Under the pieces are notes generated by a model. That model saw nothing but the letters and a program-made list of their open reading frames with translations. It searched no databases and was not told where the DNA came from. The position numbers were made by a program, and so were the translations under genes. Of a DNA stretch of 64,000 nucleotides, positions 55,590 to 64,000 are shown in pieces; positions within the stretch are counted from its first letter, which is position 1; every line of letters starts with the position of its first letter. The DNA comes from Vicinamibacteria bacterium (GTDB lineage Bacteria; Acidobacteriota; Vicinamibacteria; Marinacidobacterales; Marinacidobacteraceae): positions 2,528,001-2,592,000 of the forward strand of contig OY821641.1 of the NCBI GenBank assembly GCA_963555995.3, written 5' to 3'.

Positions 55590-57194
55590 TCACTTCGGAA
55601 TCTGTCCAGCCCGGGATTCCGGGAGGGCCCCGCCCAGCAGCAGGTCCCGGAACCACTCCGGCGGCGCAGCGCCGGGCCGGAGCGTGATCGCCCCGACCCG
55701 GTTGTCCGCGACGAATGTTTCATCCGCGAGCCACGATGCCGCGCTCACGTCTGGCACGAGCAGCAGGGTCGCGTCGGATCGTTCCCCGTCCCAGCGGAGC
55801 GCGTCCTGATAGGGGTGGGCGGATTCCGCCATTCCGCCCACGATCCCCTCCGGGCGCGCGCGGTACTTCGCGTCAAGGACCACGAAACCGGAACCTTCCG
55901 CCAGCCCCTCCCGATGCAGGACGAGATCCGGCACGAACTGGGCGGAAACCGACCGCAAGTCCGCTCCGTGCCGCGACGCGGTCTTCTGCAGGAAGAGAGA
56001 GATCGCAGCGCGGTCGCCGCGCCGGAACCGGACCCACCGGCGGTCGCCCTTCTCCCGTCCCTGTGACTTCCGCCATTCCGCCTCCGGAAGCCATTCCCGC
56101 AGCCGACGCGCCAACTCCACGAAGCACCACCGCTCGTAGATCTCCCAAGTCGGGCTGAGCGGGAGGTCGTCCTCGGCGTCGCGATGGATTCCGGGCCGGA
56201 GGGCCTCCCACCCGGTCCGCCAGAACTGCGCGTACATCGGGTGCGCGGCGACGGCGTTCAGCCCGGCCGCGGTGATCTCGGGCCGCCGGGCGTCCCGGAA
56301 GGGCGACTTCCGCTCGGCGCGCTCGAAGCGCCGGGACATCCGGTCCAGAATCTCTTCCCAGCGGGGTAGCCGCGTCCGGAACCCGGTCCGGGTCTCGGCC
56401 TCGCCTTCCTTCCCCGCCTCGTCCCGCAGCCGTTCCCGCACCCGTCCGGCGCGTCGCCGGAGCGCCCGCAGCATGGTGAGCGCGGCGCGGTTCGCGGGAG
56501 CGTCGAGGCTGCGCTCGGCGGCCGGCGTGTCCAGGAACGGCGGGCTCGCGGGTGACGCCCCCATCTCCGCCGGGCGCGTCTGCGGGAGCGCCGCAAGCGC
56601 CGCCGGTTCGCGCAGCGCGGTGCGGAGCGTGCGGAGGTCGGCGCGGCGCACCCGGTGGAGCGGGACCCACTCCCGCCGGGTGCGCAACACGCTGCGCGGC
56701 TCACGGTGGATCGCGGCGATGGCGCGGACGAGCGCCCCTTCCCGGCGGCGGAGGCGCTCCAGCGCGACCAGCGGATCGTCCGCTTCCCCGAGAGCGCCGA
56801 GCCGTTCGCGGGCAGGCTCCGTCCCGAGCACCAGTTCGGGATCGTGGTCGAGGATCTCCGTCAACATGCGGTCGAAGGTTTCCGGGTCCGCCTTGTCCGG
56901 GTCCGGACTCACGCCGAGCCGCCAGCTCCCGAGCGCTGTTCCATCCGGTGCGAGAAGTTCGGCGCGCACCGGCCCGGCGTAGTAGCCGGGCCTCCAGACC
57001 CAGATCGCCTCTCCCGCTTCCAGGGGCTCGTCGTCCACCAGCAGACGGCATCCCTCAGGCATTCCCCGGCCTTCGGGAATCCGGAGCTCCGCCTCGCGCA
57101 ACTCGGAGAACGCGACGTTCGGCCCGGCGGGGTCGAGGGTCACCCACCCCTCTTCCCGCCGCACCTGGAGAGGAACGTGAGGAACGGTTGCCAC
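55590..57194 (-). CDS. DUF2357 / PD-(D/E)XK McrC-like nuclease
   Basis: WEIYERWCF, VPDLVL, VLDAKYR; 4 bp downstream of the McrB-like gene. Confidence 0.85.
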   Translation of the reverse strand: MATVPHVPLQVRREEGWVTLDPAGPNVAFSELREAELRIPEGRGMPEGCRLLVDDEPLEAGEAIWVWRPGYYAGPVRAELLAPDGTALGSWRLGVSPDPDKADPETFDRMLTEILDHDPELVLGTEPARERLGALGEADDPLVALERLRRREGALVRAIAAIHREPRSVLRTRREWVPLHRVRRADLRTLRTALREPAALAALPQTRPAEMGASPASPPFLDTPAAERSLDAPANRAALTMLRALRRRAGRVRERLRDEAGKEGEAETRTGFRTRLPRWEEILDRMSRRFERAERKSPFRDARRPEITAAGLNAVAAHPMYAQFWRTGWEALRPGIHRDAEDDLPLSPTWEIYERWCFVELARRLREWLPEAEWRKSQGREKGDRRWVRFRRGDRAAISLFLQKTASRHGADLRSVSAQFVPDLVLHREGLAEGSGFVVLDAKYRARPEGIVGGMAESAHPYQDALRWDGERSDATLLLVPDVSAASWLADETFVADNRVGAITLRPGAAPPEWFRDLLLGGALPESRAGQIPK

Positions 57195-57198
57195 CGCG

Positions 57199-59451
57199 CT
57201 ACCGCCAGAAGCGGAAACTTCCGGTCTCGTCGAGATCCTGGACGAGTTCCCTGACCTTGCGCGCCGAGTCCTTCAGCCCGGCGCCATCGAGCACTTCCCG
57301 GCACTCCTTGAGGGCCTTCCGGTATCGCTCCGAGTCGTCGCCGCGCAGCTTGGGAAGCACCTTGGCGTAGGCGATCTGATCGAGCGCCTCCTCGAACGAC
57401 ATCTCGGCGGAATCCGCGGCGCGCCGTTCGAGGAAGGCGACGAACTCCGAGATCACCCGCCAGCCGAAATGGAGCCGGGCCGGACTCAGCGCCGCCATCA
57501 ACTCGTTCAGCAGCTTCCGAACACGATCCCGTTCGTCGCCGGCCAGCTCGCACGCCTCCCAGCCCGGCCACGCGTCCACCTCGATGTCCCAGAACTCCCG
57601 CGTGAACGCCCGGTCCAGCACCTTGTCCGAGAGTCCCATCGTCGTCTCGTCCATGTTCACGGTGCCGATGAGGACCAGGTTCCGGGGATAGGGAATGCGC
57701 TGCGGCACGCCGAGCGCCATCTCGTCGGAGTCGTGGAACTCCACCATGCCGCCCTCCCGCTCCATCGCGCTGAGCAGCGGCGCGAGGTACTGCTCCGGAT
57801 GGGACAGGTTCATCTCGTCCAGCACGGCGACGTGGACCTCCTTGGGATTCCCCGCCGCGTGCAGCAGGAAGCGCTGGAAGTCGGTTCCCGCGTAGGCGCC
57901 GTCCAGCGGGTTCACGTACCCGAGGAGCGGGCTCGGGTCGTGCCAGCCGGGCGCGGCGGACACCGCGCAGAGCCGGACGGACGACTCGTCGTCGGCGCCC
58001 GTCAGGGCCCGCCCGTACTCCATCGCGAGCTGGGTTTTGCCGCTGCCCGAGAGCCCCGCGAGGATGGCGAAGTGGCGCCGTTCGTTCGCCCAGAGGCCGA
58101 GGTGGAGCGACTCGATCAGCTCGCGGGAGAAGGCGAGGTCGCGTTCGCTAGCGGCGGCCTGGACCCTTTCAACGATCTCACCGAGCGGCGGCACGAACAC
58201 CACCGGGATCGGGTCGTCGTCCTCGTAGCGTTTGGGGAACCAGTGACGCAGGAACCTGTCGTGGTCCTGCTCGGCTCCGTTGAACGTGAAGTCAATCAAG
58301 GCGTCCGCGGCCCAGGGAAGCGTTCCTGAACCGGGCGTGACTTTCCAAAGCGTCGTCCGTTCCGTGTAGAAGTACCACTCGCGGTGTGGTTCCATGGGCG
58401 TCCACTGCACACGGAGTTTGCGACCGTCTCCCATGTTCTCGGTCACGACACCGGTCGCCTTGATCGCCATCGTGGATGTGCTTTCACCCCTGTTGTCGAA
58501 CGGGAGACCGTGTTTCTTGGTGTAGGTGGACTTGATGGCGATACGGTCTCGGCGCTCTATCGACTTGACGCCATCCAGATACCTGTCGTCGTAACCGTTC
58601 TCCCATACACCGTCCCGCAGGAAGCGATCGGTCTGGTCCTCGTTGCCGAAAATCGCTCCGACGAACCAGCAGGGGCGATCTTCTGCGGGCTCAGGCGCGG
58701 CTCCCCCGCCACCGGCGACCGCGAACAAGACCGACTGCGCTTCCAGCCGGTCCCTGGGCCGTTCAAGGCCGGATTCGCGAGCGCGTCGAACGAGTTCGTC
58801 GAGGAATCCCAGTGCGTGGTCGTAGTGTGAGCCCTCGTCGCCGCTGGGGGCAGACGCCGGATGTCCGGTGCGTTCGTACGTCTCGGCGAACTCCGTCACC
58901 TTGTAGGGCGGAAACTGGCGGGCGTCGCGAGCCATCAGGAGAACGGCGATCCATCTCAGACGTGTGCCGGTGCCCTTAGTGGGCGCTTGCTTACCGCTGG
59001 GCAACCTGTCGGGAATCAGAGCCGTGAACGCGCGAATCCGATCGGCAGTTGACAGGCCGATGTCCTCAGCCCAGATTACTCGCAGAGCTTTCCGAGCTTC
59101 GTCCGGCTGCTCGCTGAACCAGTTACGCAGGCCGGTCTTGTCATAAGTGGAGGTGAGGTTGTTGCTGATCGCCTTCGCGACCGCGTCGAGGCAGTTCTCA
59201 TCACCCTGCAGAACGGCCCGACGGGCTTCCTGAAGCTGTCGCTCGATGGCGCGCTTGTAGTCGAGTTCTTCGCTATCCAGACGGCCAGTCTCGATGTAGC
59301 TACGCACTTCATCGAGGTAGAGGTTCCATCGACGGGTCACGCGCGCTCTTCCGGCAATCTCCGAAAGCCCCTCTGGCCCGTACTTGCGGCGTTTCGTCTC
59401 TATTGCCTTCTGCCCCGCCGATGGCGGTCCGCTTGGTAGATCCCTCGTCAT
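57199..59451 (-). CDS. McrB-like AAA+ GTPase with long composite N-terminus
   Basis: GLSGSGKT, LDEMNL, GTVNMDETT, LSDKVLDRA, KVLPKLRG. Confidence 0.9.
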   Translation of the reverse strand: MTRDLPSGPPSAGQKAIETKRRKYGPEGLSEIAGRARVTRRWNLYLDEVRSYIETGRLDSEELDYKRAIERQLQEARRAVLQGDENCLDAVAKAISNNLTSTYDKTGLRNWFSEQPDEARKALRVIWAEDIGLSTADRIRAFTALIPDRLPSGKQAPTKGTGTRLRWIAVLLMARDARQFPPYKVTEFAETYERTGHPASAPSGDEGSHYDHALGFLDELVRRARESGLERPRDRLEAQSVLFAVAGGGGAAPEPAEDRPCWFVGAIFGNEDQTDRFLRDGVWENGYDDRYLDGVKSIERRDRIAIKSTYTKKHGLPFDNRGESTSTMAIKATGVVTENMGDGRKLRVQWTPMEPHREWYFYTERTTLWKVTPGSGTLPWAADALIDFTFNGAEQDHDRFLRHWFPKRYEDDDPIPVVFVPPLGEIVERVQAAASERDLAFSRELIESLHLGLWANERRHFAILAGLSGSGKTQLAMEYGRALTGADDESSVRLCAVSAAPGWHDPSPLLGYVNPLDGAYAGTDFQRFLLHAAGNPKEVHVAVLDEMNLSHPEQYLAPLLSAMEREGGMVEFHDSDEMALGVPQRIPYPRNLVLIGTVNMDETTMGLSDKVLDRAFTREFWDIEVDAWPGWEACELAGDERDRVRKLLNELMAALSPARLHFGWRVISEFVAFLERRAADSAEMSFEEALDQIAYAKVLPKLRGDDSERYRKALKECREVLDGAGLKDSARKVRELVQDLDETGSFRFWR

Positions 59452-59668
59452 TCTCGCTACTCCTTGCCCAAGGCCTCCATAGCCTCCCCTCAAGCTAAGG
59501 GGCTACGTCTTCGGGGTGGCGTCCGCAGCCCTTCTGCTCCAGGCCCAAACTGAGTTCGGTCATTCCGTTCCCCTCTCCCGGACGGCGCCGGGGCGCGAAT
59601 GATCCCAACGTGGCGCGCCGAAACCTGTCATTCATCGGGCCGGCGGCGCGGCCCCGCGTTCCCGGCGC

Positions 59669-60899: not shown

Positions 60900-61517
60900 T
60901 CACGCGAAGTCACCCCGCGCCTCCCCTTCCGCGGCGGCGATGGCCCGGCGGTTCTCTCCCCGCTTCAGGAGGGCCAGCGGCGTGACGCCATCCAGCGACG
61001 ACCGCGGCGTGGTCAGCCAGACCCACGCGGCGTAGCCGTCGGAGAAACAGGGGACGATCCGGTCCAGCCCATCGGGGGGTCGGCCCCGCTCGTCGAGTTG
61101 CCCGGCCGGAAAAACATAGCCGCGCCGAGCGCTCTGCCAGCCGACGATTCTGCCCTTGCCGAGGTGGTTGAGGACGGATTGGCGGGTCTTGAAGCCCATG
61201 CGGGCGGCAAGTTCGTCGGAACTCAGAACGACTTCGCCGGGTCCGGGGCGCGTGATGGCGGATAGCCGTCGTGCCGCCTCCTCGGCGCTGACCTGATGGG
61301 GCGCCTCACCACGGATCGTCTCGGGCTCCACGGCCGGTGCGGACGTTCCCTCGGTCGCCAGGGTGGCCGCCACCGCCGCCAATGCGGAACCCACGGCCTC
61401 GGGATGTTGCGCCAGGGTGGCGATGTGGCGGGCGCTCAGATGGCGAGCGGCCGTGTGGACCACGTTTTCCAGCGCCCGGACTGGGCTTGTCTCTGCCTCG
61501 ATGACCGTGTTCTTCAT
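60900..61517 (-). CDS. HTH + Xre/MbcA/ParS-like antitoxin, no intact toxin
   Basis: LSSDELAARMGFKTRQSV, YVFPAGQ, WVWLTTPRSSLDGVTPLALLKRG. Confidence 0.8.
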   Translation of the reverse strand: MKNTVIEAETSPVRALENVVHTAARHLSARHIATLAQHPEAVGSALAAVAATLATEGTSAPAVEPETIRGEAPHQVSAEEAARRLSAITRPGPGEVVLSSDELAARMGFKTRQSVLNHLGKGRIVGWQSARRGYVFPAGQLDERGRPPDGLDRIVPCFSDGYAAWVWLTTPRSSLDGVTPLALLKRGENRRAIAAAEGEARGDFA

Positions 61518-61676: not shown

Positions 61677-62804
61677 TTAGGGGTCCGGTGCAGCGTCCGG
61701 CCCGGTGGGGCGGGTCGCCCGGTAGGCCTGGCGGGGGTGGCTGCGGCTCTCGGGGTAGTGCAGTTCGAGGTGTCCGGCCTTCGTCATCGGGGTCAGGTAC
61801 CGGCGCTTCAGGTAGTTCGTGTCGAAACCGAGCCATGCCGCCAACTCGGCGGGACGGGTCCAGCCGCGAGCCTCCGTGATCTCAAGAATCAACCGGCGCA
61901 CAACGTCGGGGAGCGGGCGCGACGTCTGGCGGATCGCGCGGAGCTCGATCTGCATGTACTCGGGGATGTCGTCCGGCAGCGGCGGCGGGGTCGCCGGAGC
62001 GGGGACGGACGCCGGTTTCGGAGACGCCTTGCGCCGTCGGGCCGGCGCGGGGGACGGTTTCGGTCCGGGTCGCGGTTTCGGCGCAGGCGGCGGTCTCGAC
62101 TCGGGCGGCGGTCTCGACTCAGGCGGCAGTCCCCGCTCCGGGCGTGCCGCGGACCCGACCGGCCTCTCCGGGCGGACGGCTTCCGGTGCGGAGGCGGAGG
62201 ACGCCTCCCGTTGGGCGGCGGGTGCCGGCGGGTCGGGGGCGGGACCGCCACCGTCAGCGGTCCGGTCCGGGTCCGGCGCCGGAGCCGGGACCGGGTCGTC
62301 CATGACCTCTTCCAGGAACCGGGCGGCCCGCTTGGTGAGATCCGTGGCGCCGTCGGTGAACGTGGCGAAGGCGGCCCCCCACAGCACCATACGTTCGCCG
62401 AGGACGGCGCACCAGACCCCGAGCCGACCCAGCCGCCCCTCGGCGCTGCTCCAGTTCCGGCCCCAGGAGCCGACCCGCGCGCCGAGGTTCTGCACTCGGC
62501 GGCCGAGGAATCCGGCGAGCCGCAGGGCCTTGACGACCCGGCCCGAGCCGCGTCCCAGCCAGCGGAGGAAGCGGAGGAACCACTCGCCCAGCCGGACGAG
62601 CCACAGCCAGACGCCGACCCCGAACGTCCAGAGCCGCGGGCGCGGCTTCAGGACGAAGCGGCGGATGCCGGCGAGCCCGGGCGGCTGGCGCGACTCCAGG
62701 AGTCTGCGGACGGACTCGACCGTCTCGACCTCACCGGGATCCTCGCCGTGGGAGGAGGACGGAGGCGGCTCGTCCAACGGCTGCCGAAGGTTCAGGACGC
62801 CCAC
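61677..62804 (-). CDS. Protein with Trp/Arg-rich amphipathic N-region, Pro/Ala linker and C-terminal winged-helix domain
   Basis: WTFGVGVWLWLVRLGEWFLRFLRWLG; linker; AELAAWLGFDTNYLKRRYLTPMTKAGHLELHYPESRSHPRQAYR resembles the wHTH tail of Fic and AlbA/ATP-binding regulators. Confidence 0.75.
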   Translation of the reverse strand: MGVLNLRQPLDEPPPSSSHGEDPGEVETVESVRRLLESRQPPGLAGIRRFVLKPRPRLWTFGVGVWLWLVRLGEWFLRFLRWLGRGSGRVVKALRLAGFLGRRVQNLGARVGSWGRNWSSAEGRLGRLGVWCAVLGERMVLWGAAFATFTDGATDLTKRAARFLEEVMDDPVPAPAPDPDRTADGGGPAPDPPAPAAQREASSASAPEAVRPERPVGSAARPERGLPPESRPPPESRPPPAPKPRPGPKPSPAPARRRKASPKPASVPAPATPPPLPDDIPEYMQIELRAIRQTSRPLPDVVRRLILEITEARGWTRPAELAAWLGFDTNYLKRRYLTPMTKAGHLELHYPESRSHPRQAYRATRPTGPDAAPDP

Positions 62805-62884
62805 GCCGGTCAGCGCGCCCCGGCGGTTCGGGGAGTGGACGGGGAGCCGGGCATGTGCTTTCGGAGGAACCGAGGCGCGGTCGT

Positions 62885-63417
62885 CAACCTGTGTGATTCA
62901 GGCCGCCTGCGAGTCCGAGCCTGTGTGATTCAAACCGCCTGCCGGGTCAAGCCTATGTGATTCAGCCTGTCTCACGCCCCGAGCCTATGTGATTCAGCAC
63001 GTTTCGCGCCCCGAGCCTATGTGATTCAGACCGTCTCACACCCCGAGCCTATGTGATTCGGCCCGTCTCGCGCCCCGAGCCTATGTGATTCAGCACATCT
63101 CGCGCCCCGAGCCTATGTGATTCGGCCCGTCTCACGCCCCGAGCCTATGTGATTCGGCCCGCCTCGCGCCCCGAGCCTATGTGATTCAGCACATCTCGCG
63201 CTCCGAGCCTATGTGATTCAGCACGTCTCACGCCCCGAGCCTATGTGATTCGGCCCGTCTCACGCCCCGAGCCTATGTGATTCGGCCCGCCTCGCGCCCG
63301 AGCCTATGTGATTCGGCCCGTCTCACGCCCCGAGCCTATGTGATTCGGCCCGCCTCGCGCCCGAGCCTATGTGATTCGGCCCGTCTCACGCCCCGAGCCT
63401 ATGTGATTCAGCACGTC
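62885..63417. repeat. Non-coding tandem array, 17 units of 32 bp (consensus CCGAGCCTATGTGATTC-RGCMCGTCTCRCGCC)
   Basis: GTGATTC starts at 62893, 62925, 62957, 62989, 63021, 63053, 63085, 63117, 63149, 63181, 63213, 63245, 63277, 63308, 63340, 63371, 63403. Confidence 0.97.
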
Positions 63418-63426
63418 GGCCCACGC

Positions 63427-63474
63427 TGTCAAGCGACAGATAAAACTGGGCCGCTGGCGACATCTAAAACTGGG
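63427..63474. mobile_element. Probable IS21-family terminus
   Basis: TGTCAA start and two GCGACA..TAAAACTGGG motifs 24 bp apart, the repeated-box layout typical of IS21 ends. Confidence 0.6.
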
Positions 63475-64000
63475 GGCGCTTCACGGTTTCGTGTGGAAAC
63501 AGGCCGCAGCCGGGCTGAGGTCCAGCCCGCCCAGGTGGAAGTAGATCGCCTCCCGGAAGCGGGCGCGGTTTCGGTAACCGCAGGCCATCTTCTTGAGCCA
63601 CTGGATGCGCGAGTTGATGGCCTCGGCGCGTGCATTGGTGACGGTGGAGGTGGCGGCGTTGATCACGCCATCCCAGTGTCGCTTGATCATCCGAGCGACA
63701 CGCTTGATGGGTTCCAGGCGTGAGCGGATGGCCCAGCCGTACCACTGCTTCCACCGGCGTTCGGCCCAGCCCCGGACCCGGTATCCCCACAGGGTTGCGG
63801 CCAACTGCTTGATCGCCCAGGCGCGCGCCACCCGGAGTTCACTGTTCCGCAGGGTGGCGAATTTCAACTGCTGCCGGCGATTCAGCGTCCCCGGCTTCAT
63901 CTGCCACAGGTACCTGCTCTTGTTGAGCCGGTCGTCCCCGGAGCGCAGCAACTCCCGATGCTCCTCCCGGCGCACCCGGTCCACCGCCTGTCCCAGGTGC
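63475..64000 (-). mobile_element. Second copy of the ISL3 element (3' part, runs off the window)
   Basis: Reverse complement of roughly 7081-7606, same transposase C-terminus and same GAAGCGCC end. Confidence 0.97.

Follow-up and report, generated by a model that had tools for sequence, protein, structure and literature searches.

Winged-helix genes with adjoining helically phased DNA arrays in one acidobacterial group: candidate cognate binding and membrane tethering

Here, we analyze a 17-unit array of DNA repeats and the winged-helix gene beside it, both located in a stretch of 64,000 nucleotides (the window). The locus raises two questions: do the array and the gene belong together, and if so, what could the pair accomplish? 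An earlier note on this DNA had proposed a single module in cis, in which the array is bound by the neighboring protein and tethered to the membrane.

The array and the winged-helix gene in the window

The array (62883–63424, without strand) consists of 17 units with inter-unit spacings of 32 bp (14 times) and 31 bp (twice), as the earlier note had counted, and has a TRF score of 715. On the gene strand, the site reads GAATCAC-ATA-GGCT with the GGCT end toward the gene start. The exact core, CCGAGCCTATGTGATTC, is present in 14 of the 17 units, while the three gene-proximal units have 5, 1, and 2 core mismatches, confirming that the units closest to the gene are the most degenerate. All six frames are closed (the longest open stretch has 69 codons and the remaining five have at most 31), and the array is non-coding, as previously suggested. 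Unit 1 is separated from the start codon by a spacer of 78 bp (62805–62882, without strand), in agreement with the approximately 80 bp noted before; we found no sigma-70-like promoter in this spacer. The link between gene and array is not an assembly artefact, as contig 26 of run X6, from a separate study, runs through the gene and into the array up to its third unit, with 54 differences over 1121 letters (∼95% identity). X6 and other runs are labeled as sponge or reef metagenomes.

A CRISPR array or the RNA array of a type III toxin-antitoxin system was rejected because the spacers are near-copies of each other and an Rfam search of the array gave no match up to an E value of 1. Three further readings were also dropped: for XerD arms, the partner arm is absent; for an integron, the cassette structure; and for a TIGR-like array, the second conserved box. 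The last array unit directly abuts a solo element end (63427–63474, plus strand), which we take to be IS21-like from its end structure. An ISL3 element (63475–64000, minus strand) is inserted in this end and extends past the window; it has an 8-bp duplication at the insertion and five identical copies in the genome, and is a bystander. On the other side, directly downstream of the winged-helix gene, the gene at 60900–61517 (minus strand) has a weak match to the C-terminal part of Xre/MbcA/ParS antitoxins, and no cognate toxin was seen beside it. At 55590–59493 (minus strand), just downstream of the cassette, lies a McrBC-like pair consisting of an AAA_5-type ATPase (a weak match) and a DUF2357 protein with a PD-(D/E)XK nuclease, followed by a CocE/NonD-type hydrolase.

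The winged-helix gene (61677–62804, minus strand) encodes a protein of 375 aa, and the position of its start codon matches the starts of the homologues. The protein has a disordered start, an amphipathic/hairpin domain, a Pro linker, and a winged helix. In the AlphaFold model, long N-terminal helices are followed by a disordered linker and a confidently predicted winged helix (pLDDT about 90–96). The winged-helix domain (61710–61979, minus strand) is identified by Pfam, AlphaFold, and Foldseek as related to Fic-like_C; the Pfam match to PF21247 (E value of 0.0012, 19.1 bits) is below the curated cut-off of 27 bits, and the six paralogues in the genome of the window (G000) score 18–24 bits. Foldseek ranks the Fic protein Dde_2494 (4rgl) first and DIP2311 (3lmm) third, with E values of 0.05–0.1, i.e., above 0.001, and a profile of the winged helix retrieves AlbA_2-HATPase-type ATPases carrying related tails; related winged helices fall into 2313 clusters. 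Judged from these models and profiles, the C-terminal winged helix has a fold related to that of Fic and AlbA_2-HATPase tails.

The N-terminal helical domain (residues 41–168; 62301–62684, minus strand) is cationic and is predicted to form a helical hairpin. Its strongest amphipathic helix (residues 68–85; 62550–62603, minus strand) has a hydrophobic moment of 0.65 and a charge of +3 and is predicted to bind the membrane surface. The window protein has no transmembrane segment, the best 19-residue Kyte-Doolittle mean being 1.35, and a transmembrane anchor, as opposed to an amphipathic helix, is unsupported. Among the homologues, 49 of 52 have an amphipathic 18-residue window with a moment of at least 0.5 compared with 10% of control segments, the median net charge of the N-terminal domain is +15, and transmembrane-like hydropathy is reached in a single N-terminal domain of the 52; some of the N-terminal helices are rich in Trp and Arg. 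Fold searches with the N-terminal domain, which is composed of helices and a hairpin, return generic hairpins only (Z at most 9.5), and neither Pfam nor the ESM Atlas has a match to it. In the window protein, Pfam and NCBIfam have no match to a ParB CTPase domain and an FtsK-type translocase domain is absent; the earlier description of an amphipathic region, a Pro linker, and a C-terminal winged helix without an enzymatic domain holds. The pooled dN/dS of 18 family pairs amounts to 0.41 in the N-terminal domain and to 0.35 in the winged helix; both domains are under purifying selection.

Gene and array form a recurring unit

Homologues are present in all 15 other genomes of the genus, in 21 of the 27 other genomes of the family, and in 2 of 173 further genomes sampled from the class, with up to nine winged-helix matches per genome; one homologue carries the name Acidobacteria bacterium. 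Using a fixed detector on 66 domains of at least 55 bits, taken from most of the listed loci, we found an adjoining phased array at 53 homologue loci but at only 12 of 600 random control genes, and nine of these 12 read as neighbors of family arrays. Reading by eye adds seven arrays (60/66), one of which has two copies only. Of the remaining six loci, two show no array; the other four are a locus at a contig end, a locus interrupted by an IS element, a partial tandem copy, and a locus with arrays of other words in front. Genes with a poor array include L206 of G008 (two copies) as well as L209 and L225 (none clear). Among 56 loci that were read, the array lies upstream in one orientation at 42 and downstream at 14; therefore, of the expectation that homologues have an upstream array, the adjoining array stands while the upstream position does not hold throughout. 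Arrays range from two units to a span of ∼2.7 kb, and their size is extremely plastic. At G013:C4:976292-979021, a dispersed array of ∼2.7 kb has alternating 31- and 33-bp units. Several gene copies in the family are broken. Altogether, gene and array form a recurring unit, and the family belongs to one acidobacterial group.

Many of the 84 neighbor genes scanned (of 116 called) encode toxin-antitoxin, IS, MmeI, Uma2, Fic, AlbA_2, or AAA_14 proteins, and no rep, par, or translocase gene is among these 84. Scans of JGI metagenomes by protein and by pattern gave no match, and a scan of GTDB contigs with a triple 8-mer (21 of 64 parts) gave 119 loci, all of them lacking both the extended core and a winged helix of the family. 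The window word was not found in viral contigs, while ATCGACCGGA had 30 matches there, nearly all in two copies or with a spacing that is a multiple of three, with no long family array. A literature search covering main texts and few subscription papers returned no account of this family. It is apparently undescribed, although its kind, i.e., a protein with cognate direct repeats, is already known; its notable feature is a code of words distributed over many paralogues.

This code is evident within G000, in which each of the six paralogues has its own adjoining phased array and each array has a different word. Reading the core words at 56 loci with hand-set anchors, we identified 23 central words in one common frame, W-A-W-Y-G-A/C-C-N-N-N-R-G-Y-T, of which A2, G5, G12, and T14 are near-fixed. 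The period is constant across 21 word classes, and different words have spacer sub-motifs in common. GANTC is present in only 2 of the 56 cores; the idea that the array senses methylation was not borne out.

Across genomes, similar helices pair with similar words. The predicted recognition helix (D328 and the helix 329–342; 61779–61823, minus strand) is the part of the protein whose changes track the DNA word best. Most of the 15 close homologues have an FDTNYL helix, and their loci are predicted to have the window word or one close to it. If the residue at the position of D328 is His, base 6 is C (20/20), while with other residues it is A (34/36); the predicted covariation of core and recognition helix was thus observed, although in the tree of the N-terminal domain this rule corresponds to one or two independent events only. 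Within the His clade, a single nested Asp helix is paired with an Asp-type word. In partial correlations that allow for the rest of the protein and in which locus pairs are not independent, the strongest correlation with word change is seen for windows of 11 residues over the recognition helix and over the basic loop that precedes helix 1, while the top single columns scatter and often lie outside the helix. Because gene and array are passed on together, independent covariation events are few.

In-gene repeats with the same site frame also occur in HATPase-winged-helix genes from two other families, L296 (G097:C129) and L298 (G145:C54); the gene with an Asp helix has an Asp-type word. In many related ATPases, 7-residue repeats immediately precede the winged-helix domain; because the two genes that were read as DNA have the family frame, these coding repeats might be sites for the encoded protein itself. 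This other architecture gives independent support for the link between helix and word. In the HATPase_c_4-winged-helix proteins P0065–P0186, in-frame repeats are located just before the domain.

Eight congener loci (L179, L180, L181 [read by eye], L182, L183, L188, L198, and L216) have the same flanks but four different words. Because flank identity is 84–96% compared with 59–73% over array and gene, we conclude that array and gene are exchanged as a block. This proves that gene and array travel together, but not that one binds the other. In some pairs at this locus, a trypsin-like gene behind the block seems to travel with it. From the helix-word link and the adjoining arrays, the winged helix very probably binds the neighboring array as a row of cognate sites.

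Arrays dispersed round the chromosome

In G000, six further arrays have the window word, with 3–18 units each; one is split by an IS21-type element. They adjoin unrelated genes, among them those for CusA-like, QueG-like, Fic, and MmeI-like proteins (named by reading the translations). Because of these six arrays, the window word is not confined to one cis locus and the proposal of a single cis module does not hold. The earlier note had also held that the same array beside unrelated genes would indicate an ordinary minisatellite; such same-word arrays do exist, but all six paralogues own arrays of different words. All 83 exact YTRTGTGATTC sites in G000 are inside the seven window-word arrays, and two core positions outside this search pattern are invariant in 83/83 units, while the spacers are variable. 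The words of the other paralogues likewise form dispersed arrays, and a AAGACCGTAG array of 10 units has no matching gene in G000.

The 205 site spacings in G000 are 12, 20–22, 31–34, 42–43, 62–65, 75, and 97 bp, with a single exception at 24 bp, and follow a helical phase with R of 0.93 at 10.7 bp. As anticipated from the window array, sites are therefore spaced at whole turns of the DNA helix. Merged into 24 loci, the arrays are spread round the chromosome more evenly than random (P = 0.009 in a single post hoc test). A replication-strand bias was rejected, as the window word is present on both strands of both replichores. A role in origin function or segregation fits poorly with arrays that lie all round the chromosome and are lineage-specific and with a gene that was not found in 6 of the 27 other family genomes; similarly, iterons of an origin and a plasmid centromere were rejected based on the 24 loci and the lack of rep or par genes among the neighbors scanned.

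In seven congeners with at most 20 contigs, presence of the gene and presence of the word agree in 7/7 genomes for the window word, 7/7 for ATCGACCGG, and 6/7 for GCGACATG. Arrays without a gene occur in G009 (GCGACATG), G013 (GACGCATG), and G004 (three units), and six fragmented assemblies have ATCGACCGG arrays for which no gene was found. Conversely, the array beside one G014 gene has decayed and gives no strict match. Dispersed arrays in G014 and G017 match paralogues of the same genome. A generic pattern detected no array in five gene-free family genomes, but the same pattern missed three of five gene-bearing genomes; in the other two it detected real arrays, each matching the genome's own paralogue. 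Thus, dispersed arrays mostly match paralogues of the same genome, with exceptions. For five dispersed G000 arrays compared with five congeners, 24 of 25 orthologous spacers lack an array, while three units of a different word were found in the remaining one; target duplications were not evident at these arrays.

A candidate tether and competing readings

We favor a model of cognate binding and avidity-driven membrane tethering, drawn by analogy with Noc and BldC, to which we assign, as a whole chain, a probability of roughly 40%. In this model, the recognition helix would, with high probability, read the variable middle of the word. With phased sites, every bound protein would face the same side of the DNA, such that weak membrane-binding helices could act together, as in Noc, and the bound proteins would clamp the array DNA to the inner membrane via their cationic amphipathic helices. 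The array beside the gene may also set the expression of that gene, and dispersed arrays, seeded from existing ones, would be extra anchor points. Among the observations in line with this chain are the arrays owned by 6/6 paralogues and found at 53/66 homologue loci, the link between helix and word, the agreement of word and gene in congeners, the amphipathic helix in 49/52 homologues, and the even spread of the arrays. However, patchy presence, lineage-specific array sites, and toxin-antitoxin and IS neighbors fit a housekeeping tether poorly. Moreover, the cationic domain could bind DNA rather than lipid; we notice that the related winged helix of CbFic2 is described as binding DNA non-specifically with high affinity (PMC10628234).

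Noc of Bacillus subtilis has an N-terminal amphipathic helix, the weak membrane affinity of which is described as requiring nucleoprotein assembly (PMC4331003). In that account, Noc binds DNA site-specifically, at sites scattered round the chromosome; for the window family, site-specific binding and an N-terminal amphipathic helix are predicted, and its arrays are dispersed round the chromosome as well. Noc is a ParB-like CTPase acting on 16-bp sites, while the window family has no enzyme domain, a patchy distribution, and many paralogues whose words differ; its arrays consist of tandem direct repeats. The repeats of Subirana and Messeguer, as presented in the accessible text of their reports, have fixed periods (20–21 and 52 nt) and species-specific words, and a protein partner and some route of transposition are postulated (PMC8161180, PMC6749651). 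The arrays described here are similarly non-coding, dispersed, and of fixed period and variable sequence; in contrast to those accounts, in which the partner is unnamed, they mainly have a period of 32 bp, their host belongs to the Acidobacteriota, and a candidate partner gene adjoins them, with a correspondence between its helix and their word. Schlafen/AlbA_2-HATPase_c_4-winged-helix and Fic-winged-helix proteins (PF21247) have a homologous C-terminal winged helix, but the window protein lacks their nuclease, ATPase, and Fic domains, and its repeats adjoin the gene instead of lying within it and occur in dispersed arrays too. A paper on Schlafens lists the ATPase-HTH architecture, and its main text does not describe DNA repeats near these genes (PMC13056530).

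In Rep/iteron, ParB/centromere, and Streptomyces TraB/clt systems, a winged-helix or HTH protein is combined with cognate direct repeats that adjoin its gene. Members of these families vary in specificity, and clt-like sites are also chromosomal; TraB is defined by its FtsK-type translocase domain. By comparison, no replicon, ParA, or translocase motor was seen among the neighbors scanned beside the genes of the window family.

With the proposed pairing, a candidate protein partner can now be named for bacterial repeats of fixed period and variable sequence, the function of which is open in published work. Six paralogues with six words in one genome provide a built-in control. By extension, the winged-helix tail common among Fic and Schlafen-ATPase proteins may recognize repeats of the protein's own, and the 23 natural helix-word pairs could supply small orthogonal DNA-binding domains. 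If the proteins indeed tether arrays, or are membrane toxins held by them as discussed below, they would constitute a new link between chromosome and membrane without an enzyme domain.

Because of the fast turnover and the defence-type neighborhood, three other readings compete with the tether. It is possible, but unlikely, that the protein is a membrane toxin sequestered on DNA, for which the arrays would be a sponge that holds a membrane-damaging domain on the chromosome. Degradation of the DNA by phage, or array loss, would then free the protein and harm the cell in abortive infection or addiction, and new words would avoid cross-talk or decoys. The Trp/Arg-rich helices, array lengths between two units and ∼2.7 kb, the exchange of alleles as blocks, the winged helix in common with Schlafen/HATPase proteins, and neighbors that are mostly toxin-antitoxin, IS, MmeI, Fic, AlbA_2, and similar genes are all compatible with this idea, and some bacterial Schlafens are described as acting against phage (PMC13056530). 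However, PADLOC models matched two of the six paralogues, weakly, and the window protein over its Pro linker only; the N-terminal domain resembles generic hairpins; a transmembrane segment is absent; and genes and arrays are each lost separately. We consider it similarly doubtful that the family as a whole is a DNA-antidote system, in which a parked membrane-damaging protein is freed upon destruction of the chromosome, symbiont strains exchange at least 23 orthogonal pairs of helix and word, and hosts grow matching sponge arrays.

It is also rather improbable that the protein is solely a regulator or roadblock that oligomerizes on the array, controls its own gene, and stops transcription past gene ends, with the N-terminal domain serving as a protein-interaction hairpin. 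The precedent is BldC of Streptomyces, which binds head-to-tail on direct repeats in variable number; in the accessible text, BldC is MerR-like with 68 aa, has one regulon, and, unlike the window protein, is presented without an amphipathic domain (PMC5859096). Such a role would agree with the 42 of 56 arrays located upstream of their own gene in one orientation and with convergent spacers, which hold 11 of 18–20 dispersed arrays compared with 18% of all spacers (based on our own crude gene calls); however, convergent spacers also simply tolerate insertions, and the conserved amphipathic helix, arrays of tens of units, and the lineage-specific positions are left unexplained.

A selfish or near-neutral cassette, in which the protein binds its word and bound arrays grow and spread to new sites through recombination or IS21-type elements with no gain for the host, is quite unlikely. 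Five of 17 IS21-like ends are within 200 bp of an array, three of them within 18 bp, compared with an expected 2.4% of intergenic bases (P = 4e-5); these five ends are at 63427 in the window and at 692158, 2173784, 2319911, and 3309580 of G000:C1, and IS21-like elements may target or mobilize arrays. Together with this proximity, lineage-specific arrays without visible target duplication, the spacer sub-motifs in common between words, and the broken gene copies speak for such a cassette, while purifying selection on both domains, the constant period across the 21 word classes, and the lack of a catalytic domain with which the gene could move itself speak against it. Finally, it is very unlikely that the array is a common minisatellite or a repetitive RNA next to which the gene lies by chance: the same word does occur beside unrelated genes and a 192-nt stretch folds at a z-score of −3.2, a value that repeats inflate, but the detector found arrays at 53/66 homologue loci compared with 12/600 control genes, the short hairpin of the window word is not apparent by eye in other words, Rfam has no match, and the spacings follow the turns of the DNA helix.

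Three other regions of G000:C1 caught our attention. At about 3.32–3.43 Mb, the cumulative GC skew falls by ∼23,000 over 110 kb, far more steeply than elsewhere; this region is possibly a giant gene cluster or a foreign segment. At G000:C1:679391-682348, nine single TTGACC-type sites, mostly ∼300 bp apart, form a repeat with a longer period and adjoin short arrays of two family words. A CRISPR array at G000:C1:1462147-1466199 has 67 repeats with a 61-bp period, and an IS21-like end lies at its border, at 1466218.
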